In this document: piece after piece, positions 11,036 to 62,759 of the stretch
How positions within the stretch are numbered: the stretch's first letter is position 1
Layout of the letters: each line of letters opens with the position of its first letter
NCBI RefSeq assembly: GCF_044704955.1
Contig: NC_091991.1
Location: forward strand, 141,484,001 to 141,548,000
Direction of reading: 5' to 3'
Source: Pristiophorus japonicus
Taxonomy: Eukaryota
DNA: 64,000 bases
Program-made: the position numbers and the translations under genes
Notes under the pieces: generated by a model
What the model saw: the letters and a program-made list of their open reading frames with translations, nothing else
Database searches by the model: none
What the model was told of the DNA's origin: nothing

Positions 11036-14000
11036 TTATGCTCCTCCTGTACAATGTGGGAACTCAGGAACGACTCCAGTGTCCCTGACGACTACGTGTG
11101 CAGGAAGTGTATCCACCTCCAGCTCCTGACGGTCCGCGTTGCGGAGTTGGAGCTGAGAGTGGATTCACTCTGGAGCATCCACGATGCTGAGAATGAAGTG
11201 AGTAGCACGTGTAGCAAGTTGGTCATACCACAAGAGAAGGGTCCACAGCTAGATAGGGAATGGAAGACCAGCAGGAAGAGCAGTGCAAAGAAGGTAGTGC
11301 AAGGGTCCTCTGTGGTCATCCCCCTGCAAAACAGATACACTGCTTTGAGTACTGTTGAGGGAGATGACTCATCAGGGGAGGGCAGCAGCAGCTGCCAAGT
11401 TCATGGCACCGTGGCTGGCTCTGTTACACAGGAGGGCAGGAAAAAGAGTGGGAGAGCGATAGTGATAGGGGATTCAATTGTTAGGGGAATAGATAGGCGT
11501 TTCTGCGGCAGCAACCGAGACTCCAGGATAGTATGTTGCCTCCCTGGTGCAAGGGTCAAGGATGTCTCGGAGCGGGTGCAGGACATTCTAAAAAGGGAGG
11601 GAGAACAGCCAGTTGTCGTGGTGCACATTGGTACCAACGACATAGGTAAAAAAAAAGGGATGAGGTCCTACGTAATGAATTTAAGGAGCTAGGAGGTAAA
11701 TTAAAAAGTAGGTCCTCAAAAGTAGTAATCTCGGGATTGCTACCAGTACCACGTGCTAGTCAGAGTAGGAATCACAGGATAGCACAGATGAATACGTGGC
11801 TTGAGCAGTGGTGCAGCAGGGAGGGATTCAAATTCCTGGAGCATTGGAACCGGTTCTGGGGGAGGTGGGACCAGTACAAACCGGACGGTCTACACCTGGG
11901 CAGGACCGGAACCAATGTCCTAGGGGGATTGTTTGCTAGTACTGTTGGGGAGGAGTTAAACTAATATGGCAGGGGGATGGGAACCAATGGAGGGAGACAG
12001 AGGGAAACAAAAAGGAGATAAAAGCAAAAAACAGAAAGATGAGATGAGAAAAAGTGGAGGGCAGAGAAATGCAGGGCAGAGAAATGCAAGACAAAGAACT
12101 AAAAGGGCCACACTACATCATAATCCTAAAAGGACAAAGGGTGTTAAAAAAAAACAAGCCTGAAGGCTTTGTGTCTTAATGCAAGGAGTATTCGTAATAA
12201 GGTGGATGAATTAACTGTGCAAATAGATGTTAACGGATATGATGTGATTGGGTTTATGGAGACGTGGCTCCAGGATGATCAGGGCTGTGAACTCAACATC
12301 CAGGGGTATTCAACATTCAGGAAGGATAGAATAAAAGGAAAAGGAGGTGGGGTAGCATTGCTGGTTAAAGAGGAGATTAATGCAATAGTTAGGAAAGACA
12401 TTAGATGTGGAATCTATATGGGTAGAGCTGCAGAACACCAAAGGGCAAAAAATGTTAGTGGGAGTTGTGTACAGACCTCCAAACAGTAATAGTGATGTTG
12501 GGGAGGGCATCAAACAGGAAATTATGGGTGCATGCAATAAGGGTGCAGCAGTTATAATGGGTGACTTTAATATGCACATAGATTGGACTAACCAAACTGG
12601 AAGCAATACGGTGGAAGAGGATTTCCTGGAGTGCATAAGGGATGGTTTTCTAGACCAATATGTCGAGGAACCAACTAGGGGAGAGGCCATCTTAGACTGG
12701 GTATTGTGTAATGAGAGGGGATTAATTAGCAATCTCGTTGTGCGAAGAGTGACCATAATATGGTGGAATTCTGTATTAGGATGGAGAATGAAACAGTTAA
12801 TTCAGAGACCATGGTCCAGAACTTAAAGAAGGGTAACTTTGAAGGTATGAGGCGTGAATTGGCTAGGATTGATTGGCGAATGATACTTGAGGGGTTGACT
12901 GTGGATGGGCAATGGCAGATATTTAGAGACCGCATGGATGAACTACAAAATTGTACATTCCTGTCTGGCATAAAAATAAAAAAGCGAAGGTGGCTCAACC
13001 GTGGCTATCAAGGGAAATCAGGGATAGTATTAAAGCCAAGGAAGTGGCATATAAATTGGCCAGAAATAGCAGCGAACCCAGAGACTGGGAGAAATTTAGA
13101 ACTCAGCAGAGGAGGACAAAGGGTTTGATTAGGGCAGGGAAAATAGAGTACCAGAGGAAGCTTGCAAGGAACATTAAGACGGACTGCAAAAGTTTCTATA
13201 GATATGTAAAGAGAAAAAGGTTAGTAAAGACAAACGTAGGTCCCTGCCGTCGGAATCAGGGGAAGTCATAATGGGGAACAAAGAAATGGCGGACCAATTG
13301 AACAAGTACTTTGGTTCGGTATTCACTAAGGAGGACACTAACAACATTCCGGCTATAAGAAGGGTCAGAGGGTCTAGTAAGGAGGAGGAACTGAGGGAAA
13401 TCCTTATTAGTCGGGAAATTGTGTTGGGGAAATTGATGGGATTGAGGGCCGATAAATTCCCAGGGCCTGATGGACTGCATCCCAGAGTACTTAAGGAGGT
13501 GGCCTTGGAAATAGTGGATGCATTGACGGTCATTTTCCAACATTCCATAGACTCTGGATCAGTTCCTATCGAGTGGAGGGTAGCCAATGTAACCCCACTT
13601 TTTAAAAAAGGAGGGAGAGAGAAAACAGGGAATTATCGACCGGTCAGCCTGACATCGGTAGTGGGTAAGATGATGGAATCAATTATTAAGGATGTCACAG
13701 CAGCGCATTTGGAAAGAGGTGACATGATAGGTCCAAGTCAGCATGGATTTGTGAAAGGGAAATCATGCTCGACAAATCTTCTGGAATTTTTTGAGGATGT
13801 TTCCAGTAGAGTGGACAAGGGAGAACCATTTGATGTGGTATATTTGGACTTTCAGAAGGCTTTCGACAAGGTTCCACACAAGAGATTAATGTGCAAAGTT
13901 AAAGCACATGGGATTGGGGGTAGTGTGCTGACGTGGATTGAGAACTGGTTGTCAGACAGGAAGCAAAGAGTAGGAGCAAATGGGTACTTTTCAGAATGGC

Positions 14001-15031
14001 AGGCGGTGACTAGTGGGGTACCGCAAGGTTCTGTGCTGGGGCCCCAGCTGTTTACATTGTACATTAATGATTTAGACGAGGGGATAAAATGTAGTATCTC
14101 CAAATTTGCGGATGACACTAAGTTAGGTGGCAGTGTGAGCTGCGAGGAGGATGCTATGAGGCTGCAGAGCGACTTGGATAGGTTAGGTGAGTGGGCAAAT
14201 GCATGGCAGATGAAGTATAATGTGGATAAATGTGAGGTTGTCCAATTTGGTGGTAAAAACAGAGACACAGACTATTATCTGAATGGTGACAGATTAGGAA
14301 AAGGGGAGGTGCAACAAGACCTGGGTGTCATGGTACATCAGTCATTGAAGGTTGGCATGCAGGTACAGCATGCGGTTAAGAAAGCAAATGGCATGTTGGC
14401 CTTCATAGCGAGGGGATTTGAGTACAGGGGCAGGGAGGTGTTGCTACAGTTGTACAGGGCCTTGGTGAGGCCACACCTGGAGTATTGTGTACAGTTTTGG
14501 TCTCCTAACCTGAGGAAGGACATTCTTGTTATTGAGGGAGTGCAGCGAAGGTTCACCAGACTGATTCCCGGGATGGCGGGACTGACATATTAAGAAAGAC
14601 TGAATCAACTGGGCTTGTATTCACTGGAGTTCAGAAGAATGAGAGGGGACCTTATAGAAATGTTTAAAATTCTGATGGGTTTAGACAGGTTAGATGCAGG
14701 AAGAATGTTCACAATGTTGGGGAAGTCCAGAACCAGGGGTCACAGTCTAAGGGGTAAGCCATTTAGGACCGAGATGAGGAGAAACTTCTTCACCCAGAGT
14801 GGTGAACCTGTGGAATTCTCTACCACAGAAAGTTGTTGAGGCCAATTCACTAAATATATTCAAAAAGGAGTTAGATGTAGTCCTTACTACTAAGGGGATC
14901 AAGGGGTATTTCAAGAAAGCAGGAATGGGGTACTGAAATTGCATGTTCAGCCATGAACTCATTGAATGGCAGTGCAGGCTAGAAGGGCCGAATGGCCTAC
15001 TCCTGCACCTATTTTCTATTTTCTATGTTTC
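11036..15031 (+). mobile_element. Near full-length CR1 LINE (ORF1 zinc finger + SGNH esterase; ORF2 APE endonuclease + RT), frameshifted
   Basis: ORF1 has CSSC..CRKC, GDSIVRG, HIGTND and DGLHL. ORF2 has CLNARSIRNK, GDFN, NYRPVSLTS, YLDFQKAFDKVPH, SGVPQGSVLGP and KFADD. 3' UTR ends ttttctatgtttct. Several frameshifts and a premature stop at 14591. Confidence 0.95.
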
Positions 15032-15624
15032 TAAGAGGCAATCTGTGCATGCATGCAAGCATGAATGTACAAAGCTCTTTCTTGCCAGGGCAAATGCAAT
15101 TCACAGACTGCAGTTCGATACAGGCCTTATCAGTTATGCTCAGCAGTCTACCACAATCAGTTTCAGATCAGTTTAAAATAATTTAAGACCCAGCACAATA
15201 AGACACTGGGTACTCTTATACACCGTATAGAAAAAAATAGTCGTTTCTAAGAATTTCCTCCCAATATCTGAATGCAGAAAAAATGGCATGACTTCCAAGC
15301 ACTTCATTCTTTGAGTTCAAAGAAAATTGTGGTAATAGCCTTTCTTCAACCAGAAGTGGTTGAAGAATTATGAAAATTCTGGCTTCACTTAGCTGGTCAA
15401 AATGCCAAGTGCTAAGCTGTGGTATCAAGTGTAAAACCATTGAAAAACTGAGATCTTACAAGTAGTACAAGTTAGCTTCCATGGTAAGATTAGTTAAAGG
15501 GTCCTGTAGAAACAAATGCAAATACAAAGTCAGTGATAGTCTAAAACATTTCAATGCAATGATCTGGTTTTCACCTATATTGCCATAATGGCTCAGATTT
15601 TCCTGCAACAGCAACGTACACCAT

Positions 15625-26783: not shown

Positions 26784-27134
26784 TTCACAAGAACTGTAAA
26801 GGGATGGATATCACAGTGCCATGAAATAGTTAAATATTCTGATCCATGTCACACACACATAATGTTTGCAGTGCTAAAAATGTTATGTTCAACATGCTGG
26901 GTACACATAACCACCTAACTGGAAAACTGAATTTGTATTTATTAAGTGACGCCAACAGTTCTGTAATAGTCGAAGCCCTCTACTTCTTCAGAATCAAGTT
27001 TTCTCTACATTGTCTTTAATTTGGGAATTTAAATAAAATCCACTATGCACAAAGATACCAGATTCATTGATAATGTAACAATTCTTTTTTCATACACTTC
27101 ATGACAAGTATTTAAAAAAATCCAAAACCTTTAC

Positions 27135-27244
27135 CTCATGACAGGCAAGATGCACATCTTTAATAATACAGCTGCCACCTGATAGCACAAGTTGTCTAAG
27201 TAAGAGGCAGGCAAGCTCCAATGTAGCCAAACGAATTTTCCCAT
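27135..27244 (-). CDS. CLEC16A: CLEC16A internal coding exon
   Basis: DGKIRLATLELACLLLRQLVLSGGSCIIKDVHLACHE. ctctttacag acceptor, GTAAAG donor. 110 nt, phase 1 to 0. Confidence 0.96.
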
Positions 27245-27520: not shown

Positions 27521-29033
27521 GGGCTCAATTTTCCCCAGTGATTTGCACCATTTTTTTGGCCTAAGTTTAAAAAAACAGTTTCCTCAATCAACTTGCACCA
27601 GCGTAACTCAGTTACGATTTTTTTTAAGGTACATTTTTTTTTCAAGCCATCCACGCCAATTCTGGCCATTTAGGCAAGTTTGGCGAGCTGAGAGATACTC
27701 CAGTTCCTCTTTGGCCAGAGAATGTGGCCTCTGCAAAAAAACCTTCTGGCGAGTTAAAGAAATCGGTGCAGGTAAGTGCAGCAGCAGGAAAGGCGAGAGA
27801 GAGGTGGGGGGGGCGGGGGAGAGGGGTGGAAGAGAGAGGGGGAGAAGAGAAAGGGTGGAGGGGAAGCCTTTCAGGTGTAGTTTTTTGTGGGGACTGGGAG
27901 GGAGGAAGCCACTCGGCCTGTGATAGGGGCAGGGGAGCAGACCGGTAAGCCCTTCGGCCAGGGCTAGAGGCGGGAGCGCGCATCGGCAAGGCACTCGGGG
28001 CCAGGGTCGGGTTGGGGAGCGGACCGGCAAGCCCTTCGGCCAGGGCTAAGGGCGGGGGACTGGGACTGGCAAGGCACTCTGGCTGTGGGGGGGGGGGGGG
28101 GGGGGGAGCTTGAGCGGCACCGGCAAGGGGCGGGCTAAGCAAACAGATTGACAAGCCCTTCAGCCAGGGCTAGGGTAGCTGGACCGGCTTTAATAATTGG
28201 AGGTAAGTGGCTGCAATATATTTTAATGTGTTTTTAAGTTGATGCAATGTGTTTTAATGGATCTGAAATTCCGATGTCCCAGGTCCATAAGAAGCTCCTA
28301 CGGATCCGGGAAGGCATCGGAAGACGGTTTCCAGCGCACAATGCGCATGCGCTGGAAACCGACAGTTCCGATCCATCAAGTTTTTAGTCTCAACAGATGG
28401 CCGCATCTCGGGAGCGAGGACATTTGCAGGGTAAGATTTCTGATATTTTTTAAAAATGTTTTGTATAGTGTTTGTGCGTTTTGGGCTTTTTCTCATTCAT
28501 AGTATAGGAGATTCGTAACTTACGTATCTCCTATTACTATGAATGAAAAAATACTTACCTGTGATTGGGTATCCAGGCACGTGACTTCTGCGGACGTCCT
28601 GACGTGCACGCGCTGTGCGTCGTTGGGAGAGGAGGCCTGTGAAACGGAAGTACCAATGTGCGCAGCAGCTCCAGGTAAGTGCGCAGTTTATTTCTATTTT
28701 TTCAGGATTTCCCGTGGGAAGCCCTCCTCGAAATTTCAGGGCCAATGTGTTTTTAAATTGATGCGATGTATTTTAATGTGTTGGGAGCTGGCTGTATGTT
28801 TCAACTTTGCACCCTCAGCTCGCATTGTGCACCTGGTTACCATGCCAACCCAATATTTTTAGCGCAGATCAAGGCTCCACCCCAAAACTAAAAGACAGGT
28901 TAGGCCACGCCTAAATGAAAAAAATCCAACGGTGAAACTTAGAACATTTTTGGGGGGGCGTACTTGAGGCCCCAAAAAAACGGGCGTAACTCTTCAAGCA
29001 CGCCAAAAAAATGCTTTGGGGAAAATTGAGCCC
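27521..29033 (+). mobile_element. TIR element related to family A, with a nested family B insert
   Basis: Perfect 17-bp TIR gggctcaattttcccca / tggggaaaattgagccc. Flanks aat/tat. Three internal copies of aagcccttc(g/a)gccagggcta. Confidence 0.85.
28259..28743 (+). mobile_element. Family B-related TIR element nested in 27521-29033
   Basis: TIR ggatctgaaattccg / cgaaatttcagggcc with an exact aat TSD. Confidence 0.8.
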
Positions 29034-30026
29034 TATGTGACCAAGATAAGCAGCTACCAGTATTTACAACACACATTTGTTGTCTTAAAAATAAATGATG
29101 TTATGCTTATTCATGGCAATCTGGATGCAACTGCGCAGAAATGTGGGTGAATGGAAACTGTCCAGGGCTCTTATTTATAAAAATAAGTTAGTCAGTTATA
29201 CTGGCAGAAGTTTGGTGCACACCATCACTAGAAATTTGTACTTCGTCGTTTTGTTAGATGAAACCTACCAAGTTGGATTGGTCACAAGATAAAATCAATA
29301 GGCAGATGGGCTAACAGAATCAAAGACAAGGTCAATGGATGGGTGCCGATTGTGTTCCACTCCAGATCTGTCTCCTGCCCCTGCCCCCTTCTTCAGGAAT
29401 TTGGGGGTTTAAGTGTATAATTCAAAAACATAAGCTAGACATCAGTCATTATATATTTTACATAAAGAAATTGACAGTGCTTGTTAAAGATCAACTAGGC
29501 GCCAGTCATGTGTGTTAATAGTGCATGTAAATTTAGCCTTCCTGGAAATATTGCTACACAATTTTTCAGATTTGAAGATCAACATTTATCATGAATATTA
29601 ATTTTGCTCACATAAGTTTAGAGGCAAACAATACAAATTACAGAATAAACTGGGATAAGGATCATGCAATAAAAATCAAGGGAGGGAAAACTTTGCAGAA
29701 TAAATTCTAGACTACCTTCTACATCAGTTCATTTCCAGTCCAACAAGGAAAGAAATACTGGTTAGGAAATGAAATGAAGTCGGGCAAATAACCGATGTGA
29801 AAATAAGAGTACAATTATGAAATAGAAACCACAACAGTAAGGTGCAATGTACAAACAGAAAAGAATACTTAAGAGTTCAAGAGTGCCGGATTGGAAAAAG
29901 ACAAAGTTCAATGAGTAAGTGAATCTGGTCCAAATTAACTGGGCAGAAAAAAGTTAACAAGCAGAATGAGGAATCAGCAGTGGAAAATCTTCAATTATGA
30001 GATGGACTGGGTACAAAATAGATATA

Positions 30027-30349
30027 CAGGTTCAACGTCCCGAATCGGGAATTGTCCAAAACCCGGACATTTTTGAGGCGACCAAGATGGCGACATCAGG
30101 CAGCGAGAGACGAGGAAACCAGTAACAAATGGAACACCGGAGGGCCGTGGGAATCGGCGAGGGGTGAATTCCAAAATCCGGCACAGATTTGATCTGCGGC
30201 GAGGTCAGAAATCCGGCAAAACCTGAAATCTAGCACAGATTCAGTCCAGAGGATTCCGAATTTCAGACTATTGATTTTCTTGTCCGAAATCCGGCAAAAC
30301 CCAAAAACCGGCACGGCCCGAGGATTCCAGATATCAGATAATTTACTTG
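30027..30349. mobile_element. Tc1/mariner (Tigger-like) MITE inside an old CR1 remnant (about 29850-30660)
   Basis: TA|cagg ... cttg|TA ends. Internal repeats gaaatccggcaaaacc. Confidence 0.6.
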
Positions 30350-31347
30350 TATTCCCAGAAGGTGAAAAAGGAGAGCAACGGATATAATTCCATGGATCAA
30401 GAGAGAGATTAAAACTAATTTGGAATTTAAGAGGGAGACATATGATTAAACTAGGGGTAACAATACTGAAGAAAATAAATGAGAAATATAGAACTGTAGT
30501 GGAGGGGTAATAAAGAGAGATTAGATGGGCTAAAAGAGATGATAAAAGATACAAGATAATATAAAAGGCATAATAAGGACTTTTATAAGCCTAAAAAATC
30601 TAAAAGAATAGTTAGTGATGTCAGGGATGACGGAGGAATTTAGTTGTGGAAGATAAATGATTGTAGAGATTTAAATAAATCCTCCTCCTCACCTTAATGA
30701 TACATTTTGAGAACATAGTTTCTACTTAACAGCACATCTATCCCACAATCTGTCATTTATTGCATGCTTGAGTGTTTAGGAATCATTTAGCCATACTTTG
30801 TTACTAATGATAGCAGTCTTCAAATAACATTCGCAGTAGATCAACTTTTTCCACACACTGTCTCATTCACATTGATACAAAAACAGTTGTAGGACTGGTA
30901 CCCATCCTGTCTGATGTGCTAACCACATTTTATCACCCTCCCTCCATTAACAATTAAGTATGTAGCTCCTCAAAACATGTGCCAAAAATGGAGGAGAGTT
31001 CCTGATTATTCAATTAGCAGTGAGAAGGAGGAAGAAAAGAGTGATGATGAGGGCTCAAATGAATACATTCTATAAATTAATCTATAGCCAGGAAACAAAG
31101 CATTGCCCCAACTACATTTCACTAATTTAAGCAAAGATGTGGTTAATTACGAAATATCTCATTCGCACTAGGAGGATTAGTCACTGACGTTCCTTTTCTT
31201 TTCAAATATGGTAAATATCTCACCCATCTTTCGGTAATTATCAAAAAAAACCTCAGTAGAATTTGGAAAATGCAGCTCCTACTAAGACGTACTCCGCAAT
31301 GTTGATGGTAGTTTCAGACTCTACTTCCCCAGCAATATTTAAAACAT

Positions 31348-31485
31348 TGGCCCTGAATTCCTGGCCTCTACGGGCACGTACAATGTACGCATGCGCCAGT
31401 AGGGGCCCCGCAAGTTCTGGGTTTAGGCATGCAAAGCACATGCGCTTAAACACGAAATTTGCAATCCGTCAAGAATCCTCTTGTA
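31348..31485 (+). mobile_element. Truncated left arm of a family B element
   Basis: ggccctgaattcc terminus followed by gcatgcg palindromic motifs like those at 9528 and 28259. Confidence 0.5.
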
Positions 31486-31819
31486 TTCTATTGTTTTGGC
31501 TGTATAGTTTGACAAACTATTCGTTTTGTTGGGTCAACATGTTGAGCGTTGAATTTACAAAGACTACTTGGACAGATCAGTTTTTTCTTCTTTTGGTTTT
31601 CACACTTCCCTGAAACTGGTGACTTCATATTGCAGTACAGTTTCATAGACACAAGCAACCTTACTCCACCTTGAACAAATGGCCAATCTTCATTGTGAGA
31701 AGGAGTATCAGCATGGTTTCAACCATGTAGATCACCGCAACCAAGCCCAACATGTCCTCTGTTGGCATCCACACATAAACTAGGATCAAGATGTGTATGA
31801 CATATAAAAAGGTATTCAA

Positions 31820-32475
31820 AAAGGCGCTGAGCACCTAGAGTCTGGTTGCCGAGAGCATGCAGAAAACAAGCACAGGTAGCGGAAGGAGCGGCGGCAAATC
31901 AGTCCCACCCACTCTTTCCTTCAACGACTGTCTGTCCCACCCGTGATGGACTGTAATTCCCATATTGGACTGTTCGGTCACCTAAGAACTCACTTCTTGA
32001 GTGGAAGCAAGTCTTCCTCGATTTCGAGCGACTGCCTATGATGATGATGATTCATAATGGAAATGCAAATTTGCTTAGGGATTCATAATCCCTAAACAAA
32101 TGCTTTATGTGGAGCTCCTTCATGGTAAACGAGCCAAAGGAGGACAGCGGAAACATTATAGGGACACCCTCAAAGCCTCGCTGGTAAATTCCGACGTCAC
32201 CACTGACACCTGGGATACCCTGGCCGCAAACCACCCGAGGTGGAGAAAGTCCCTCCGGGAAGACGTTGAGCTCTTCGAGTCTCAGCACAAAGAGCATGGA
32301 GAGGCCAAGCGCAGAAGAAGCGTGCGGCAAACCAGCCCCACTGACCTCTTCTCTCGACGAATGTCTGTCCCACCCGTAACAGGGTCTGTGGCTCTTGTAT
32401 CAGACTGTTCAGCCATCAAAGAACTCACTTTGGGAGTGGAAGCAAGTCCTCCTCGATTCCGAGGGACATTGATTA
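31820..32475 (+). mobile_element. Two adjacent RTE 3' end fragments
   Basis: Two copies of the gtggaagcaagtc...cctcgatt tail. The first ends in (atg)n at about 32050. LYVELLHGKRAKGGQRK. Confidence 0.85.
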
Positions 32476-35329: not shown

Positions 35330-35843
35330 TAAAGATTTGAGTACAAAAGTAAAGATGTCTTACTGCAATTATATCGAGCCCTTGCGAGACAGCACCTGGA
35401 GTATTGTGTACAGTTTTGGTCTCCTTAACTAAGGAAAGATATTGAGGGAGTTCAATGAAGGTTCACCAGACTGAACATATAAAATTATTACAAAGCTTGA
35501 CAGGGTTGATGCAGGGAGGATGTTTCCTCTGGCTGAGGTGTCTAGAACCAGGGGTCACAGTCGTAGAATAAGGGGTCAGCCATTTAGGACTGAGATGAGG
35601 AGAAACTTCTTCACTCAGAGGGTGGTGAATCTTTGGCATTCTATACCCCAGAGGGCTGTGGAGGCTCAGTCTTCGAGTATATTCAAGCAGAAATCGATAA
35701 ATTTTTGGATATTAAGGGAATCAAGGGATATGGGGATAGTGCAGGAAAGCGTCGAGGTAGAAGATCAGCCATGATCTCATTGAATGGCGGAGCAGGCTCG
35801 AGGGGCCAAATGGCCTACTTCTGCTCCTAATTCTTGTTCTTAT
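35330..35843 (+). mobile_element. CR1 3' fragment inserted in the LINE
   Basis: RTRGHSRRIRGQPFRTEMRRNFFTQRVVNLW plus 3' UTR. TSD gtacat at 35324 and 35844. Confidence 0.88.
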
Positions 35844-37722
35844 GTACATCCTGTGCCCTTGCTACCCTCAGTGCTTCTTCCAAGTGGTGTTCAATATGGA
35901 GGAGTCCTGATTCATCAGCTAAGAGAAGGCAGTAGGTGGTAATCAGTTGCAGGTTTCCTTGCCTATGTTTGACTCCATGAGACTTCATGGGGTCCGTAGT
36001 CAATGTTGAGGACTCCTAGGGCCACTCCCTCCCGACTGTAAACCATGCGCTGCCACCTCTGGCGGATCTGTCTTGCTGGTGGATCAGGACATACCCAGGG
36101 ATGTAATGGATGGGTCTGAGACATTGGCTGATTCATGAATCTGAGAGTATGACTATGTCAGGCTGTTGCTTGACAAGTCTGTGGGACAGCTCTCCCAATT
36201 TTGGCACAAGTCCCCAAATGTTAGTGAGGAGAACTCTGCAGGGTTGACTAGGCTGGGGTGCCGTTTTCATGTTCGAAGCTGGTGCCTAGGTAGATGGTGG
36301 GTGGTCCATCGGTTTTATTGTTCTTATTGCTTTTTGTAGCGGTTTATTACAACTGAGTGGCTTGCTCGGCCATTTCAGAGGGCAGTTAACCACATTGCTG
36401 TCGGTCTGGAGTCACATATAGGATAGACCAGGTAAGGATGGCAGGTATCCTTCCTTAAAAGACATTAGTGAATCAGATGGGTTTTTACGACAATCCGATA
36501 GTTTCACGGTCATCATTACTGATGTTAGCTTTTTATTCCAAATGTATTTAACTGCATTTAAATTCCCCAGCTGCCATGGTGGGATTTGAACTCACGTCTC
36601 CAGATTACTAGCAACATAACCACTACGCTACCATTCCCTATGTGTCCCTTATTCATTAATGAGGGATACATGCTAAAAAAAACTCCAGGTCTGTGAACAT
36701 GTTAACAAAAAAATAATCACAAATTTTAAGGGCCACGTAGCTAGAGCTCAGGTCTTATTTTGGACATCTCAGTCAGGATGACAGAAATATGAAGCCATAA
36801 CTTAAAACGCATTGCTGGTATTCTTCAAGCAACTTTATTCAGCTATGAATCTGCCAGTGCAAGAAGCAAAACAATTCTCACTGTACATCAGGAGGGAGGA
36901 TAATAGCTATTCTATGAAGTGAAATAAGTGCGACCTGGCAACATTCTTTCCCAACTAACACCATCAATAATAAATTAACTAGTTATTTATGTAATTTGCT
37001 GTTTGTGGGACATTGCTGTGTACGAATTTGGCTGCTACATTTGCTCATATAATAGTAATAAATGTACTTCAAAAGTTTGGTTGTGAAGTGCTTTAGTACA
37101 TTCTGAAGACATCAAAGATAGTCCATAAATCAAGTTCTTTCTTTTTGGCACTAAATTGACAATCTCACTCATGGGGGCATCAAAATGCAGCAAGTAGGAA
37201 AATAAGTCGTGTTTGTGTAAGATTGTGCTGAGGTAGAGTAGATGCAACAGTATTCTGCCTTTGATCGTGTTACACCTGATCCAGAATCCTAAAACTGGGA
37301 AATGGAAAAAGATTCCATTTCCCAGCACTAACATCTTTCAGTTTGACGGTCACAAGATACATCAAAAAAACTAAATGGAGTGCATTGTAGGGCTATAATA
37401 CATTAAAGCTATTCCAAACCAACCTCACAAAACATACACATATAGTGCATGTCCTGTGCTCTTTTAGTTGCATTCCAACGCTAAACCCATTTGCTCCTAA
37501 AGACACATGATTCTGGCTTCATTTGGTTTTTAATACTGAACCTAAACACGCACCGTGCTTATAAGTGATCTGATAAGTCCTCCACCAGGAGCGCCTTTCT
37601 GCAAATTATTCTCTGTTTAATATATTTTTTTCAGACTTCTTGTATTCGAGCTAGTACCATCAAAGCAATCGTCATGTTCGAGAAGCTCTGTAAAACCTTT
37701 CAATCCAAAGTGTCCACTTATC

Positions 37723-39333: not shown

Positions 39334-39456
39334 CAGAGTGTGTTGATTGGTTCATTATCCTAATGAGTCTTTCTGCCAATACATGGCTGTATTGGTTCTT
39401 CTCCTCAGCTTGCTCTGGAGGAACTTGGATCTTTTCCAACAGGTCTGGGTCTATGC
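39334..39456 (-). CDS. CLEC16A: CLEC16A internal coding exon
   Basis: GIDPDLLEKIQVPPEQAEEKNQYSHVLAERLIRIMNQSTHS. ttcag acceptor, GTAAG donor. 123 nt, phase 1 to 1. Confidence 0.95.
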
Positions 39457-39462
39457 CTGAAG

Positions 39463-40697
39463 GAGGATGTAACAAACAGGGTGGATAAAAGGGAACCAGT
39501 GGATGTGGTTTATTTGGACTTCCAGAAGGCATTTGACAAGGTGCCACATAAAAGGTTACTGCACAAGGTAAAAGTTCACAGGGTTGGGGGTAATATATTA
39601 GCATGGATAGAGGATTGGCTAACTAACAGAAAACAGAGAGTCGGGATAAATGGTTCATACTCTGGTTGGCAACCAGTAACTAGTGGGTGCCGCAGGGATA
39701 AGTGCTGGGACCCCAGTTATTTACAATCTATATTAACAACTTGGAAGAAGGGACGGAGTGTAACGTAGCCAAGTTTGCTGACGATACAAAGGTGGGAGGA
39801 AAAGCAATGTGTGAGGAGGACACAAAAAATCTGCAAAAGGACATAGACAGGCTAAGTGAGTGGGCAAAAATTTGGCAGATGGAGTATAATGTTGGAAAGT
39901 GTGAGGTCATGCATTTTGGCAGAAAAAAAAAATCAAAAATAAGCTATTATTTAAATGGAGAACGATTGCAAAGTGCCGCAGTACAGCGGGACCTGGGGGT
40001 ACTTGTGCATGAAACACAAAAGGATGGTATGCAGGTACAGCAAGTGATCAGGAAGGCCAATGGTATCTTGACCTTTATTGCAAAGGGGATGGAGTATGAA
40101 AGCAGGGAAGTCTTGCTACAGCTATATAAGGTATTGGTGAGACCACACCTGAAATACTGAGTGCAGTTTTGCTTTCCATTTTTACGAAAGGATATACTTG
40201 CTTTGGAGGCAGTTCAGAGAAGGTTCACTCGGTTGATTCCGGGGATGAGGGGGTTGACTTATGAGGAAAGGTTGAGTAGGTTGGGCCTCTACTCATTGCA
40301 ATTCAGAAGAATGAGAGGTGATCTTATCGAAACGTATAAGATTATGAGGGGGCTTGACAAGGTGGATGCAGAGAGGATGTTTCCACTGATGGGGGGAGAG
40401 GAAAACTAGAGGGCATGATCTTAGAATAAGGGGCCGCCCATTTAAAACAGAGATGAGGAGAAATTTCTTCTGAGGGTAGTAAATCTGTGGAATTCGCTGC
40501 CTCAGAGAGTTGTGGAAGCTGGGACATTGAATAAATTTAAGACAGAAATAGACAGTTTCTTAAACGATTAGGGAATAAGGGGTTATGGGGAGCGGGCGGG
40601 GAAGTGGAGCTGAGTCCATGATCAGCCATGATCTTATTGAATGGCGGAGCAGGCTCGAGAGGCCGGATGGCCTACTCCTATTTCTTATGTTCTTATG
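39463..40697 (+). mobile_element. 5'-truncated CR1 abutting a CLEC16A splice acceptor
   Basis: VDVVYLDFQKAFDKVPH and KFADD motifs. 3' tail ttcttatgttcttatg. Closely similar to 48740-49974. Confidence 0.93.
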
Positions 40698-41366
40698 AGA
40701 TTAAATTACAAAAAGTGCTTTGAACAATCACAGAACTTGCTCGTCCTTACCCAATATGGTGGAAGGCACACTTCTGGTTGGAAGTATGCGTATGCTTCCT
40801 GTCTGCAATTTTAGGGCCTTTGGAAACCACATAGCACCTAAAAAATGGTCACTATCTGGCCCAATTTAACCCCCAATATGATCACTGATTGTTAATTAAC
40901 TACACCTTACATTACATACAATCTTTAAGGTCTACAAGTCCAAAACTACAACCAGAGTTTTGGATCTCATTCCATACACCCAATGTGGAAAAACTACAAA
41001 TGTTCTCTGCCGTAGTCATTTTAGCAACTGGGAAAATTATTCCACAACAGTTTCCCACCTATGTAGGTCAAAGCCATCCTTGGATAACAGCAGATACCCC
41101 TTTATATGTTCTGATTAAAAGTGGAAATCTGAAAGAAATGGCTTTTTGAAGCAGTCATGGAGAAAACAACCATTTGGATCAGACAATACATGTAGTGAAC
41201 CAGTCTTGGTTGAAAGAAACTGCATGCAGGTAAGCGGTCCCATCATTGGAAACAAGTAGGAGGGAAAATAAAGTGCGTACCAAATTCTCAAGCACCGAAG
41301 AGATAAAGTTTTCTTAGCAGCTTTTATCATCAACTCAAGACCAAATATTAACAAACAAAAACTAAC

Positions 41367-41467
41367 CTTTGTTGTGAGACATTGCAAAAAGAAGACATAA
41401 CACGAACAGTGCATAATAATCCTCTTCATAACATTCCAGTGCGTTGTACACCATATCTAAGAAAGGT
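41367..41467 (-). CDS. CLEC16A: CLEC16A internal coding exon
   Basis: RPFLDMVYNALECYEEDYYALFVLCLLFAMSHNK(G). tacag acceptor, GTTAGT donor. 101 nt, phase 2 to 1. Confidence 0.96.
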
Positions 41468-47434: not shown

Positions 47435-49974
47435 CGGAATTGAATGTTGGTCGGAGTATAAACCAGGGGGCTTGTAAAAAGGGAACAACAATAATCATGG
47501 GTGATTTTAATCTCCATATTGATTGGACAAATCAAATTGAACAGGGTAGCCTTGAGGAAGAGTTCATAGAGTGCATAAGGGACAGGCTCCTTCAGCAATA
47601 TGTAATGGAACCAACCAGGGAGCAGGCTCCCTTAGATCTGGTCCTGTGTAATGAGACAGGATTAATAAACAATCTCCTAGTAAAAGGATCCCCTTGGAAT
47701 GAGTGATCATAGCATGGTTGAATTTCAAATTCAGATGACGGGTGAGAAAGTTGGATCTCAAACAAGTGCACTAAGCTTAAATAAAGGAGACTACAAAAGT
47801 ATGAGGGCAGAGTTGGCTAAAGTGGACTGGGAAAATAGATTAAAGTGTAGGATGGTTCATGAACAGTGGCGTACATTTAAGGAGATATTTCACAACTCTC
47901 AAGAAAAATATATTCCAGTGAGGAGGAAAGGGTGTAAAAGCAAAGATAGCCATCTGTGGCTAACTAAAGAAATAAAGGATGGTATCCAATTAAAAACAAG
48001 GACATACAAAGTGGCCAAAACTAGTGGGAGGACAGAAGATTGGGAAGCTTTTAAAAGCCAGCAAAGAATGACTAAAAAAATTATTAAGAAAGGGAAGATT
48101 GACTATGAAAGGAATATAAAAACAGATAGCAAGAGTTTCTATAAGTATATAAAAAGGAAAAAAAAAAAAAAAAAAGAGTGGCAAAAGTAAATGTTGGCCC
48201 CTTAGAGGACGAGACCGGAGAATTAGTAATGGGGAACATGGAGATGACAGAAACTCTGAACAAATATTTTGTATCAGTCTTTACGGTAGAGGACACTAAA
48301 AATAACCCAACAGTGGATGGGGGGGGAAGAGAAAGGAGAGGAACTTAACACAATCACAATCACTAAGGAGGTGGTACTCAGTAAGATAATAGGACTAAAG
48401 GCAGATAAATCCCCTGGACCTGATGGCTTGCATCCGAGGGTCTTGAGAAGTAGCGGCAGGGATAGTGGATGCATTGGTTGTAATTCACCAAAATTCCCTG
48501 CATTCTGGGGAGGTCCCTGCAGATTGGAAAACTGAAAATGTAACACCCCTATTTAAAAAAGGAGGCAGACAAAAAGCAGGAAACTATAGACCAGTCAGCC
48601 TAACATCTGTGGTTGGGAAAATGTTGGAGTCCATCAAAGAAGCAGTAGCAGGACATTTGGAAAAACAAAATTCAGTCAGGCAGAGTCAGCATGGACTTAT
48701 GAAAGGGATGTTATGTTTGACAAATTTGCTGCAATTCTTTGAAGATGTAACGAACAGGGTGGATAAAGGGGAACCAGTGGATGTGGTTGTACTTGGACTT
48801 CCAGAAGGCATTTGACAAGGTGCCACATAAAAGGTTACTGCACAAGATAAAAGTTCACGGGGTTGGGGGCAATATATTAGCATGGATAGAGGATTGGCTA
48901 ACTAACAGAAAACAGAGTATCGGGATAAATGGTTCATTCTTGGGTTGGCGATCAGTAATTATTGGGGTGCCGCAGGGATCAGTACTTGGACCCCAGCTAT
49001 TTACAATCTATATTAATGACTTGGAAAAAGGGACCGAGTGTAACGCAGCCAAGTTTGCTGACAATACAAAGATGGGAGGAAAAGCAGTGTGTGAGGACAC
49101 AAAAAATCTGCAAAAGGAAACAAACAGGCTAAGTGAATGGGAAAAAATTTGGCAGATGGAGTACAATGTTGGAAAGTGTGAGGTTATGCACTTTGGCAGA
49201 AAAAAAAAAATCAAGGAGCAAGTTATTATTTAATTGGAGAAAATTTGCAAAAGTGCTGCAGTACAGCGGGACCTGGGGGTCCTGGTGCATGAAACACAAA
49301 AGGTTAGTATGCAGGTACAAGTGATCAGGAAGGTCAATGGAATCTTGGCCAGTATTGCAAAGGGGATGGAGTATAAAAGCAGGGAAGTCTTACTACAGTT
49401 ACACAGGATATTGGTGAGGCCACACCTGGAATACTGCATGCAGTTTTGGTTTCCATATTTAAGAAAGGATATACTTGCTTTGGAGGCAGTTCAGAGAAGG
49501 TTCACTGGGCTGATTCCGGAGATGAGGGGATTGACTTATGAGGAATGGTTGAGTAGGTTGGGCCTCTACTCACTGGAATTCAGAAGAATGAGAGATGACC
49601 TTACCAAAACGTATAAGATTGAGGGGGCTTGACAAGATGGATACAGAGAGGATGTTTTCACTGATAGGGGAGACTAGAACTAGGGGGCATAATCTTAGAA
49701 TAAGGGGACGGCCATTTAAAACTGAGATGAGGAGAAATTCTTCTGAGGGTTGTAAATCTGTGGAACTCGCTGCCATCAGAGAGCTGTGGAAGCTGGGTCA
49801 TTGAATAAATTTAAGACAGAGATAGACAGTTTCTGAACCGATAAGGGAATAAGGGGTTATGGGGAGCGAGCGGGGAAGTGGACCCGAGTCCATGATCAGA
49901 TCAGCCATGATCGTATTAAATGGCGGAGCATGCTCGAGGGGCCGGATGGCCTACTCCTGGCTCCTATTTCTTAT
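47435..49974 (+). mobile_element. 5'-truncated CR1 ORF2 (APE end + RT) with 3' UTR
   Basis: GDFNLHIDW, SDH, NYRPVSLTS, GVPQGSVLGP and KFADN motifs. Many frameshifts. Confidence 0.93.
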
Positions 49975-56415: not shown

Positions 56416-59397
56416 TTACACTGTGATGCTCTGCATTAAACCAACCAACCAAACAAACAACAAGATGAACACCCCCTCCCCTTACCAAAAGGTGTGGGGA
56501 AGAAAAAGTAAAAATTTCACTGAGAAACTACACGATCATTTGCTTGCTAACTTCACTATAGAAGACTAACTAGAAGCAGGATACCAAAACAGGGAAGAGG
56601 GTGGGAGAAGAAAGTACATGCAACTCTATGGAAAGGTTTTTAAGAACATTTTGTTCCCATGTACACAAAGTATCTTACTCCAGTGTAGATTAGCAATTCT
56701 TTCCTGCACTGGTGAAATGACCAGTATATGCAATTTAAATCAGTGCACTTCAAAATCTACTCCAAGTTTAAAAGCACCACTTCTAGGATTGTTTGCACTG
56801 AGCTTTGAAGTTTAGTTTGATTTAGTGAGGCTTAATAAAGAACCTTACAATGATCAGTGTTCGAGGTATAGGGGCTAGTGAAAGATTGTGGGTTTAAGTC
56901 CCACTAGAATTTTGGGTTTTATAAGAATATTCAAATGTAAAGGGAGAGTACAAAAAGTGGGATTGAATTAGGTGACTCACGTGGAGGAAATCACTGGCAC
57001 ACATTTGATACGCCAAATGAACTGTTTCTATGCTAAAACATTCTATGAAAAATCATAATCGCCCTGTATATTTGGAATTTAAGTGAAGAAAGAAAATCAA
57101 CTTCAAGTATTGAGTGGAGTTATTATTAAAACATACAAGACTGCTCCAATAAACATGCTTTCTTCACAAGATATGTTAGTTAGATTCTGTTAATACATTT
57201 CTTCTGCAGGCATGTGCGCTTTCAGCAACTGGGACAAGATTTTATTAGCATACTCTGTCCTAGCATTAGTGCACATTAATGTCGTTGCAAAGAAAGGAGG
57301 AAAAAGCATAATTTATAATTCAATAAATTTAAATCCCTTTAAAGAACCACAGAAGATTTGTTAAACTAAAGCTTGCACCTAACCTAATGTACACGCTTCA
57401 TTTTGACATTGATGACATCAATTTACTGATGATGTTGGTGCTAAATTGTCCAGTACATGTAAAACCACGACGTTAGCTGATCTAGTTTACAGTTAAGAAT
57501 CTTCTGGGATAATTTCTGCAGTACTTTAAAGATGAATTTAGCCAAAGTATTTTAAAGAGTTTACATCATTGAAGGAGGATGCAAGTATATCAATATATAC
57601 ATATTACTATTACTGTGGACACTTCCTGATGTCTTCTTTCTCTGTCACAACTTGTAACCCTTGATAAGGCCTGAAGCAATGCCTGGTTAGATTTCTCTTA
57701 ATGGGCAATGTTGTAGTGCCTGCTACAATAACCCATTATACAGGTACTTACCGTTTAGTCCTCCCAGCACTGGTGACACTGTGCACACGTCACTCAGGTC
57801 CTCCACTATTTTCTTAGTTTCGCTGCGCCACCACCTCTCTTTACTGGAAGCCCCGAGCACCCCTCAGTATCTTTCCTCACTCCAACCAAGTTCAAGGTAT
57901 TTTATTTTAAAACAGAGACTCTAAATTACTTTAATACATTTGCTGACAATGACAAAAAGATAAATATATAACATCCACTCAGTCTCAGATCTCCTTTTCT
58001 GACCCTGCAGTCCTCTCTTCTGCTCTAGGCCTTCCTCTCGTCCAACCTATTCTTCTTCAATCAACACATTCGGCTGCTCCTAATCAGTTCTGCAATCTTT
58101 ACCTGCCTTTCCAACCTTTTCTTGCCCAGTTCCAACAACCCCTCCCTGCAGATTCCAACTCACCTTCTCCTGCTGCTCCTATCCTGCTCTTCAGCTCCCG
58201 TGGTGTATACACCCCTAATGTCTCCACAACCACTCTTGGTCTTTCCATCCATCATCCCTGGCCCTTCCCCTGCATCCCTCCAGTGTCCATGGCCTTTCTC
58301 GCTCTCCGCTCTGGTCCTTTCCTGGTCCCGACTGTTCTCCAGCTGCCACTCTTTTCTCCCAGCCCAGCTTGGCTGCACCAGCCATTTAAAAAAAAATTCT
58401 GCTCCATTCTGTTTTCAGGTCTACTTCCTGCTGGAATTCAGCTATTCCAGCCTGTCCATCCTGGGACAACAAAAAAAATGCAACAGCAGGAGAAAAAATC
58501 AGCTAGAGTAGGCAGAAATAAGTCAATGCCAGGCAGAATGAGACAGATAATTCCAAAAACAGACAAGGGGGATCTATGGGACACAGAAACACGGGTCAAG
58601 AAAAGACATGAACTTAAAGATCAAAGGAGACAAAAATCAGAAAAGCTTCAGTGATGTAGAAAGACAAAGATCATAGATAGAGCTGACATCAGAGATATGT
58701 GAAAGAGGGAGACAATGACAGATAGCCAGCAATGCCTCTGACAGATCAGATCAAATAGCTATACATGAACATGTTTTAAGAACCCCAATCTTTTCATTGT
58801 CATTAGTATATTTGTCTTGCCGGAAAAGTAGAAATGCTTGCAGTAGTGTACATTAAATTACTTTCAGTGCAAAAATGATGGCGAGGATAACCAGCAGGGG
58901 AAAAAATTGGCCCTGGTCACTTATGCCACCAACCCCTACAAGTTAGCAAACTGATGTATCCTACCCAAGGCAAGCTAATCGCTTGGTAATTAAGCATCAG
59001 CAATTTTTTAAAAATAGTCTCCAATTTTCCAGAAAAATGTTCCCTCTCTTTAGATCCCCAAGGCACACATCTTCCCAAAACAGGTATGCAAGTAAAAATT
59101 CCTAGCCTCATGCTATTCTTGAACCTCAGAACAGCAGACAGCCTGCAGAATTTCATACAAAGTTTCCCCTATTCTTACTTCAAGATCACCTTAAAACAGT
59201 TCAATAAGACATATCCTTTCTTCAAATAAAGTGGTCCTCCATCTGATCAAAAAGTTATTATCCTCCTGCAATTTTATAAACTCTCAAAATAATTTGGCTT
59301 TAAAAATGTTAATACACTTAAGCAAACATATTGAATAATCACTGGACTGTAGGAAAGTGAGGGGAACTACCAGCCTTTTAGTTAGTGCAACACTCAC

Positions 59398-59626
59398 CTT
59401 CAGTCTCCCCACTTGTCTTGATGGCTTTTGTACTAGACTCTGTACCTTTCAGCTTTTCTGTATCATCTTCCTTGTCTTCTATCCCTTTCTCCTCCTCATC
59501 CTCTTCGCCCACATTTTTATAGTTTGGCCTTTTCTGAAGTTTCTTTTTTCCCTTGTGTCGACTAATCTCAAGAGATCGCTCCAATGTTTCTACAGGTTTT
59601 GTGAAACAGCGAATGCTTGTAGAAAC
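59398..59626 (-). CDS. CLEC16A: CLEC16A internal coding exon (Lys/Glu-rich disordered region)
   Basis: Translates to VSTSIRCFTKPVETLERSLEISRHKGKKKLQKRPNYKNVGEEDEEEK...KGTESSTKAIKTSGETE, which matches vertebrate CLEC16A. AG acceptor at 59627-59628, GTGAGT donor at 59397-59392. 229 nt, ends in phase 1. Confidence 0.95.
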
Positions 59627-59957
59627 CTATCAAAAATAAATTGATATTATGAATCAGTTTGTAAAATAAAATCAAAAAATCCTGTAAATTCTCAAATGCC
59701 AGGTAAAACAACCAGTTGTCCACAACCTGTGCATAGCAACAAAGAGACTTTTTCCACACTACTGCCATGGTTTGACATAAAATGACATTTAAATTCAAAA
59801 CTACAATTAAGTCCATAAATGACTCTTTGGTTAACAAGTTGTAGGACATCCCTGCGTCTACTGTTTAAACAAAGGTGACAACCTATTTAAAATAAATAGC
59901 TGAGCATCTAATTTTCAGGTCAGAAGATTGTCATGTGTTCTTACATGCATTTATTCA

Positions 59958-60770
59958 CAAGAACATAAAGAAATAGGAGCAGGAGTGGGCCCTAGGGCCC
60001 ATCGAGCCTGCTCAGCCATTCAATAAGATCATGGCTGATCAGGTGTCAACTCCACTTTCCCACCCGATCTCCATATCCCTTGATTTCCCTAGACTCCAAA
60101 AATCTATTTATCTCAGCCTTGAATATATTCAGAGACTCAGCATCCACAGCCCTCTGGGGCGGAGAATTCCAAAGATTCACAATCCTTTGAGTCAAGAAAT
60201 TCCTCCTTATTTCTGTTTTAAATGGCCTTCCCCTATCTTGAGACCGTGACCCCCAGTTCCAGACACTCCAGCCAAGGAAACAACCTCTCAGCATCTACCC
60301 TGTCAATCCCCTTCAGAATCTTGTATGTTTCAATGAGATCACCTCTCATTCTTCTAAACGAGAATAGAGAACCATTCAACACAATCTCTCATCATAAGAC
60401 AGCCCTCTCATCCCAGGAATCAATCGAGCAAATCTCTGCTGTACTGCCTCCATGGCAAGTATATCTTTCCTTAGACCAAAACTGTGCACAGTACTTCAGG
60501 TGTGATCTCACCAAGGCTTTGTACAATTGTAGCAAGACTTCCTTACTCTTATACCCCAATCTCCAAAGAACATGACATTTGCCTTCCGTATTTGCTTGCT
60601 GTACCTTCATGCTAGCTTTGTGTTTCTTGCACAAGAATACCCAAATCTCTCTGAGCACTAACATTTAAAAGTTTCTCATCCTTTTCTAAAAAAAGTATTT
60701 TTTTTTAAAATTCTTTCTACCAAAGTGAATAACCTCACATTTTCCCACATTATACTAAATCTGCCACATT
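59958..60770 (-). mobile_element. CR1 3' fragment
   Basis: KEVLLQLYKALVRSHLKYCAQFW and RNFLTQRIVNLWNS. aagaacataaagaaatagg tail. Confidence 0.85.
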
Positions 60771-62759
60771 TTGTGTTTATCCGTTAGTATCGCCAACAGT
60801 AAATTTTAGGCTTTACTGTTTAGCTCTTTTTTGGAACTACTAGATAAAGTTTCTCATCTTGGGGAACAATATTACATATTTATTCTATAATTGCCAAACA
60901 TCTGGCATATTCGCAGAATGACAGATACAGGATTCTATCCTGCATGGCTCACAACGCCATCACACGTTAGTTTTTGCAGATGTGATTAGCACGTCTAGTG
61001 GACTTAGTGGACTGTATCATTTGAAAAAAAATGTACATGCACAGTCTTTTGAATTGTGCAACACACAATTTATTCTGATAAATTTAGAAGACACAGACTA
61101 GTTATCAATATATATGATTCGCAGCTGTTCAATGGGGTTTCGGTGAATGTTATAACATAGTAACGAAAAACAAAGACATACTGATTATTTGAGGGCTATT
61201 ACAAGCATAAAAAGGCACTTAAATACTTAACTGATCACATTGGTTGTTGTGAAAGGTAGAGTGGACACCAGCTTGAAGTCTGCTTTAGTGGAGAAAGGCA
61301 CAGAGCCAACCCAGAACAAAGTGAAGCATGTTGCTGCAATGAATCGTGTAACTAGGATACTTTTAACTCGCCATCCAATGTAAAAAAAAATTCTAATACT
61401 TTATTGAAATCAAAGTTTAATCCCTGAACAGAATGAAAGTAACACTAGACGTACAACGGTTATCACAAAAGCTGCAGTGTACCAGGTCACGTCAAATCAT
61501 ATCGCTACTAAATATACGTGAAGTTCTACAAAAAAAGTCAAGCATAAAAAGCAACACCTAGCATAAATAGGGGCCTTTGTGCTTAAAATAAAAGCAATTT
61601 TTTGGGTACAAAGATAGCCGAGTGTTCAAAGTTGCTGCTTCTTTCCTATACCTCTCCTGCACAATACAATACGACCAACTGCTACCAATGTCACTTTTCC
61701 GCCACCCACTGGAAGGTGAAAGTAGCACAGGTCGATTCATCCTCTGATTTCAGTGTCTACAGATCTTCACCTATAACCAACTGGGATCCTAGGATCACAA
61801 GTCGTAAAACCATGTCTGATCATGCTGTTTTTAAATAAGTAATGCGTTTTATCATTATTTTTGAAGATGTATTTATTCTCTAATTCCCCCATCAGATCAC
61901 AACAGCGGGCAATCCGTTCAAAGAGTAATGTCATTCTGAATTGGGCATCAAGAAGCACAGTATAAAAGCCGAGAGATATCTCTGCCAAATATTTCCCAGG
62001 AGATACTGCCCCGCATAGCAGGAAGGCCAGGATCAGGAACTCGGCTAAGTGGGGGAAATCAAACCAGAGTCCCATCATTCAACAGTGTCATGTGTTGGTG
62101 CTCCATATACACTAACTTATGAAAATAATGGGAAAAGATCATCCAGCCAATAAAGCACACCCCCCACCACAGCCCGACAGTGTACAGCCACGTACACCAG
62201 TTATTCAACCCAAGTCATCAATCTCCTGGGAGAGGCAAAAAAAAAAACAAGGGCCAACTTGGGGAGTGGTATTTACTCGGGCTTTTGCAGAGGCAATCAA
62301 TGAAGGCTCCAAGAGACCACAGCGCCTCATGAATATTATTACCAGCTATGTCTTCTATATTTTGAAATGACATCTTCTCTCAGGAACTTGACCAGCTCCC
62401 TCTGAAGAACTGCAGGAAACCCAAACTTACCAAACACGTCAGTGATCTGTACTAGAGAATGATAATTCTGTGAATGGAAATACTTCCCACTTGTCCCTTC
62501 CGTATACATCTCAAATAACCTATCCACCAACAAGATAAAACTTAATCTCTTCATCATTTAAAAACCTGTGTCATATCCCCTCTCAGCCCATGCTTCTCTA
62601 ATGAAAATACCCCCAACCCCTTGAGCCTATCTTGATGAAGAACTTCAGTTATTCTGCCAAATTTATCTTTAGAAAAACCCATGAAGGAGATTAATGGGTA
62701 CATGCAAAATGCCATTTCATAAATTTCCCTTTTGTAGAATAGGCATGGGCCATCAAGGA

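Follow-up and report, generated by a model that had tools for sequence, protein, structure and literature searches.

Retroelements are already known to supply core splice signals. The closest described system is the merle allele of the dog, in which an antisense SINEC_Cf sits at the boundary between intron 10 and exon 11 of PMEL (PMC7349775). In the portion of that report drawn on here, the host branch point is displaced and the element acts as the pyrimidine tract, an arrangement that matches the one described below for CLEC16A; the original and cryptic acceptors compete. In contrast to the CLEC16A insertion, the merle element is young and polymorphic, is flanked by a 15-bp duplication, draws its tract from a poly(A) tail, and leads to exonization with a phenotype. 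At CLEC16A, the tract corresponds to the body of an old LINE ORF2, the host AG was retained, and only the normal junction was seen. The same portion of the merle report places branch points usually about 20 to 50 nt from the acceptor (PMC7349775).

Other systems show the same principle, as far as the cited sections of the respective papers go. Antisense Alus are a source of branch point, tract, and acceptor in exonized Alus (PMC4315302), a LINE fragment supplies part of the branch site of the disease-associated GPR143 pseudoexon (PMC7951965), and retroelement exonization has been described in non-mammals (PMC2911107). As in the case presented here, retroelement bases provide core 3' splice signals in the Alu and LINE pseudoexons of these sections. 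However, these systems make new exons, whereas in CLEC16A the signals of an ancient constitutive exon appear to have been replaced while the protein stayed unchanged. The twist at this locus is that the body of ORF2, and not the tail of the element, forms the tract, with support from RNA.

Surveys of transposable elements (TEs) near exons offer a second point of comparison. The consulted parts of these studies report that LINEs near exons in mammals are mostly antisense (PMC3088655) and that TEs are depleted near acceptors, the survivors being mostly antisense and truncated (PMC3088655; PMC6108849). Among full-length elements within 20 bp of exons, 3 of 30 AluY and 2 of 7 L1 copies were located at acceptors (PMC3088655; PMC6108849). 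The LINE in CLEC16A is antisense and truncated like these mammalian survivors, and fixed insertions less than 20 bp from an acceptor are rare but real in the parts consulted. Those parts are confined to mammals and do not ask whether a survivor supplies the tract; no shark survey of TEs near exons was found in the literature searched. Furthermore, the accessible sections of a study on polymorphic Alus less than 100 bp from exons describe them as splicing quantitative trait loci (QTLs) that often, not always, raise exon skipping (PMC6326789). These Alus resemble the present case in that the insertion falls in the branch-point and tract zone, and their outcome depends on the locus, with one having no effect. 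Their exons are alternative and their effects were measured in the sections cited (PMC6326789), whereas the CLEC16A case is known from sequence and contigs. No report of this CLEC16A insertion was found in the literature searched, in which subscription journals are sparsely represented.

The CLEC16A exon and its transcripts

The window, that is, the whole stretch of 64,000 nt of Pristiophorus japonicus DNA analyzed here, carries CLEC16A on its minus strand. Of the 14 Pfam CLEC16A_C matches in the genome, 13 were collinear on NC_091991.1, and a protein search with one exon returned shark and ray CLEC16A as the top matches (86 to 95% identity). With the CLEC16A_C domain spread across collinear exons and best matches named CLEC16A, the gene has the hallmarks of a CLEC16A orthologue.

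The 123-nt exon of interest (39456-39334) is preceded by AG and followed by GTAAG. It starts and ends in phase 1, in agreement with an earlier note on this DNA that had called it in frame, and its loss would remove 41 residues without shifting the reading frame. Of 120 homologues listed, 115 contain the exons on either side, and 114 of these have kept the exon between them. The exception, which lacks it in frame, is a bird gene model (P0100) that may be a prediction error. The exon peptide was 93% identical to that of the closest shark entry, comparable to the neighboring exons (92 to 97%).

Contigs from three transcript-like runs (X5, X6, and X7) cover this part of the gene. These runs come from three samples (S2 to S4) of the same organism in one study and have a share of 0.07; like all 11 runs listed, they are not on record as RNA. 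Each yielded one contig, with depths of 43, 25, and 50, that joins 43140-43011, 41467-41366, 39455-39334, and 27244-27134 without a gap in record coordinates; the joint appears shifted by one base owing to a G that could belong to either side. Two intron bins covered by the DNA run had no cover in any of the three runs. The contigs thus represent spliced transcripts, in which the acceptor at 39457 is used. As the contig of every run carries the exon between its neighbors, exon skipping is not the main outcome, with the proviso that contigs drop rare forms. The tables of joints and loose ends, with 15 of 1,272 and 24 of 3,082 rows listed, are dominated by repeat contigs and are uninformative on rare skipping.

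Further observations concern other parts of the gene and the sample. A fragment of CLEC16A (window 57716-59626), made up of exon 59399-59626 and about 1.7 kb of the following intron, has an 88% identical copy, with a stop in its exon, on another chromosome-scale contig (about 201254568-201256497); eight other exon regions were compared with this dispersed duplicate, and none matched it. In rays and skates, several CLEC16A isoforms (P0011 to P0013 and P0015) cover just 83% of the peptide of exon 59399-59626, hinting at an alternative splice site within it. Run X1, a DNA run from the possible source sample of the assembly, has numerous single-nucleotide differences and short gaps relative to the assembly in the single-copy intron sequence at 29009-31871. 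One contig of 1,139 nt, for example, has 13 differences and 7 gaps, which suggests that the second haplotype is fairly divergent.

The LINE copy and its junctions

A LINE lies next to the acceptor of the 123-nt exon (Table 1). The insert measures 1,235 nt, close to the 1.24 kb given in the earlier note, is antisense to CLEC16A, and covers the intron from about -7/-10 to -1,240. When the genome was searched with 39440-39700, family matches began at query positions 24 to 27, corresponding to 39463-39466. In all 29 loci fetched from the junction search, family similarity began at 39463 or 39464, which bears out the previous claim that CR1 sequence starts 4 to 7 nt from the acceptor AG. All 40 scored matches of the junction search were 95 to 97% identical, self-match aside, these being the best of 4,249 first-look candidates. 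Most family copies extend 5' of 39463 with family sequence that is absent from the window, and in copies with an intact 3' end the similarity ends at about 40697, at the same tail that terminates the window copy.

Table 1. Features of the acceptor region in CLEC16A (positions in the window)
Feature	Positions	Strand	Evidence or remark
5'-truncated CR1-type LINE with broken reverse-transcriptase/ORF2 remnant, 3' UTR, and TTCTTATG tail	39463..40697	+	RVT_1 matches
LINE-derived pyrimidine tract and AG-free zone	39463..39518	-	Antisense ORF2, C-rich and U-poor
Predicted branch-point motif yUnAy in the LINE	39485..39489	-	Adenosine 39486, at -30; no other such motif from -15 to -60
Host sequence left at the acceptor, -1 to -6	39457..39462	-	AG at 39458-39457; no similarity to family copies; used in contigs
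GAG common to element and target (microhomology or short duplication)	39463..39465, also 40697-40699	.	
Cryptic AG of the LINE tail, immediately 3' of the displaced host tract	40692..40693	-	Top tract score of 55 AGs scanned
Putative displaced host tract, formerly at about -7/-10 to -35; distance to the AG now 1.24 kb	40698..40725	-	Computed rejoining
Internal coding exon of CLEC16A (123 nt, phase 1-1)	39334..39456	-	Pfam PF19439 267-303, E 2e-9
Upstream CLEC16A exon, donor at 41366	41367..41467	-	Pfam; contigs join to 39456
Downstream CLEC16A exon	27134..27244	-	Contigs join to 39334; Pfam match

The RVT_1 domain was matched on two frames, with E values of 2e-7 (over the cut-off) and 9e-6 (under the cut-off), and the LINE ORF is broken into three pieces by one frameshift and one stop. 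The element thus combines a LINE-type reverse-transcriptase domain with 5' truncation, an intact 3' end, and a dispersed high copy number. LINEs of the CR1 clade carry a short tandem-repeat tail in place of poly(A) and leave no long target-site duplication. Both features were found here, as the TTCTTATG tail is a short tandem repeat and the duplications in 42 copies were no longer than expected by chance. The family is provisionally labeled CR1 on the basis of the earlier note, the tail, and the absence of long duplications. This truncated copy lacks the APE endonuclease and ORF1. Compared with 58 copies from the genome, 29 of which were picked on the 5' end (set A) and 29 on the middle (set B), the LINE had a median identity of 92% and was 3.0% off the column majority; the 58 copies themselves were a median of 3.8% off. 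Judged by its sequence, the LINE belongs to a large family and is one of its old members; no shark rate from which to derive an age in years was found in the literature searched.

Additional repeats are present in the same gene. Other LINE pieces of the same superfamily lie in CLEC16A introns at 12996-15034, 35474-35849, 47588-49974, and 59953-60772. Three of the four longest are antisense to CLEC16A, and the one in sense orientation (59953-60772) stops 327 nt short of the acceptor at 59626. An older dispersed repeat at 40736-40880, which is 72 to 86% identical to 39 other places, is separated by about 45 nt from the reconstructed empty acceptor downstream of it. The end of the intron would thus have bordered a repeat already before the LINE arrived.

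Between the AG and the element there are four host bases, or seven if the common GAG is counted as host. The earlier note had reported this GAG at both ends of the insert, where it is indeed present, and had proposed that removing the insert at this point rebuilds a natural acceptor. The rejoined acceptor does look ordinary, but the GAG is not the only possible point of rejoining, as a 2-nt duplication or a blunt join also fits the empty site, besides the 3-nt duplication. Junction duplications were considered as proof of the empty site and rejected: the 42 copies with both ends found had duplications of 2 to 7 nt in a lenient search, and this length distribution was the same as that of random position pairs in the same search. 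No second copy of the intron flank without the insert was found in this genome, where only the locus itself and the older short repeat were matched.

The LINE-derived tract and alternative explanations

The pyrimidine tract and the AG-free zone, which extends over 60 nt, are LINE derived, as the earlier note had recognized in describing them as antisense CR1 coding sequence, and the LINE occupies the branch-point zone as well as the tract. The tract is antisense ORF2 and does not stem from a poly(A) or repeat tail; the insert carries its own tail at the opposite end (40690-40697). At -25 to -5, the sequence is 81% pyrimidine and 43% T, compared with 52 to 86% pyrimidine and 52 to 71% T in 11 other CLEC16A acceptors, making it poorer in U than all 11. 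The AG-free zones of these native acceptors span 22 to 88 nt. A composition score was trained on the same 11 acceptors, which were picked by eye from Pfam matches; four of them were confirmed by contigs or flank confirmed ones, and one further exon (L072) was left out of the training because its acceptor is unclear. On this score, which is not a calibrated splice-site model, the tract reached 1.0, against 0.7 to 6.7 (leave-one-out) for the others, and exceeded only one of the 11. The three reconstructed empty-site acceptors (3-nt duplication, 2-nt duplication, and blunt) scored 4.6, 1.9, and 4.2, with 57%, 52%, and 57% T and 22 to 25 AG-free bases, placing the rejoined host tract within the range of the other CLEC16A acceptors. 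As the tract is poor in U and outscores a single native acceptor, some loss of splicing efficiency is plausible.

Given that the tract and AG-free zone consist of LINE sequence and that transcripts use the acceptor, it is very likely that LINE bases serve as the tract and as the predicted branch point. The locus is probably best explained by an antisense, 5'-truncated CR1-type LINE whose cut end lies next to the used AG and whose reversed ORF2 likely provides both signals. Target-primed insertion with 5' truncation would have moved the host tract 1.24 kb away. The sense strand of the element is purine rich, which would account for the pyrimidine content of its antisense strand; in the antisense ORF part, pyrimidines make up 62% and AG occurs 3.6 times per 100 nt, compared with 52% and 5.5 times in the flanking intron. 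The truncation may then have chanced upon a long AG-free stretch and a yUnAy motif at -30. An intact AG and a strong donor can carry exon definition, and with the host AG and the strong GTAAG donor both preserved, exon definition likely picks the old AG. U2AF and U2 would bind LINE bases, as the host tract is now 1.24 kb and dozens of AGs away and branch points are usually located about 20 to 50 nt from the acceptor. The allele would have outlived selection and become fixed because splicing still worked, its survival reflecting purifying selection against worse truncation points, and it appears not to have been remodeled since.

How fortunate the truncation point was can be gauged from 1,115 possible truncation points, each joined to the last six host bases, bearing in mind that these windows overlap and that the composition model is crude. 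A score at least as high as the real one together with at least 20 AG-free bases was obtained for 14% of the points (about 1 in 7), 16% attained the lowest native score, and 12% had an equal pyrimidine share. An AG-free zone of at least 62 nt occurred at about 4%, and in this respect the real site is better than average. A workable tract is an uncommon, not rare, outcome of the antisense composition of the element, and beside a conserved exon only such outcomes would be expected to last.

The earlier note had gone further in calling the LINE immediately exapted as a core splice signal, which overstates the case, as we found no tuning or extra constraint and a workable tract arises at roughly one truncation point in seven. 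The first 100 nt of the LINE differ from the family majority at one (set A), three (set B), or two sites (both sets), as expected from the approximately three differences per 100 nt in the rest of the copy. No sign of retuning or extra constraint was seen in the tract relative to the family majority, a comparison for which 60 bases offer little power. That selection reshaped the first 60 LINE bases into a better splice signal is highly improbable. Two of the three differences from the set B majority (39474 and 39490) are C-to-U changes on the pre-mRNA strand, in the direction that such retuning would take; however, both variants are also carried by roughly half of the 29 set A copies, which were chosen for similarity, and were likely inherited from the source element, and the number of differences is not unusual. 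On sequence grounds, the term exaptation would hold only passively, the tract being ordinary family sequence with about the same 3% divergence as the rest of the copy. Misassembly that set a repeat beside the exon is scarcely credible. The DNA contigs of run X1 enter the LINE from the two flanks by only 10 and 26 letters, below the bridging rule of 31 letters, and come from the possible source sample; but the locus lies within a 187-Mb contig, and the clean truncated 5' end, intact tail, single-copy flanks, and rejoining to a normal acceptor all argue for a genuine insertion.

Of more consequence is the possibility that the weaker, C-rich tract permits partial skipping or exposes the acceptor to competition from cryptic AGs of the LINE, be it in certain tissues or at a low level, so that the insertion would amount to a mild splicing QTL that became common. 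The earlier note had offered leaky skipping as its alternative outcome. The low score of the tract relative to all three empty-site reconstructions, its T content below that of the 11 other acceptors, and the single homologue lacking the exon (the bird gene model, possibly a prediction error) are consistent with this, and in the cited part of the Alu study insertions 25 to 41 nt upstream of exons raised skipping in minigenes (PMC6326789). Furthermore, three AGs within the LINE outscored the real acceptor, the highest being 40692. Nevertheless, leaky splicing is unlikely, and as a main outcome it finds no support, given the continuous exon-bearing contigs in all three samples and an exon peptide that is not relaxed. 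Use of the AG at 40692, which has an A at -3 and from which read-through meets a stop after 3 codons, was not seen among the 15 of 1,272 joints listed. For each of four cryptic AGs tested, read-through to the exon would run into a stop after 3 to 31 codons, and the antisense LINE contains just one site resembling a donor. It is more improbable still that the insertion is polymorphic and that the spliced RNA came from animals or alleles without the LINE, in which case the contigs would be uninformative on the LINE-bearing acceptor. The RNA samples (S2 to S4) do differ from the DNA sample (S1), and they have no intron cover for genotyping. However, the copy is not young, being 3% off the family majority, interrupted by a stop and a frameshift, and only about 92% identical to its closest copies, and an S1 contig with two differences, perhaps from the other haplotype, enters the LINE by 10 nt, below the bridging rule. 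Neither an adaptation nor a leaky allele, the insertion is most likely a tolerated survivor whose tract is weaker than the one it replaced but still adequate.

Implications for splice signal turnover

As retroelement-supplied splice signals are known, this locus alone changes no principle. It likely represents a natural swap of a core splice signal, in which LINE coding sequence took the place of the tract and branch point of an exon conserved between sharks and birds without causing its loss from the transcript. It would illustrate that an intact AG and downstream donor leave considerable latitude in the tract, and the filled and empty introns form a ready minigene pair. The finding would matter more if such replacements proved common genome-wide in cartilaginous fishes. 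Tentatively, and with more doubt than confidence, one may suppose that antisense CR1 ORF2, rich in pyrimidines and poor in AG, is a ready acceptor platform in the repeat-rich genomes of sharks, that LINE insertions into the tracts of constitutive exons are tolerated far more often there than in mammals, and that many ancient exons now depend on tracts and branch points of LINE origin. If this were true, retrotransposition would renew core splice signals without altering the protein, and the CLEC16A locus would be an RNA-supported example.
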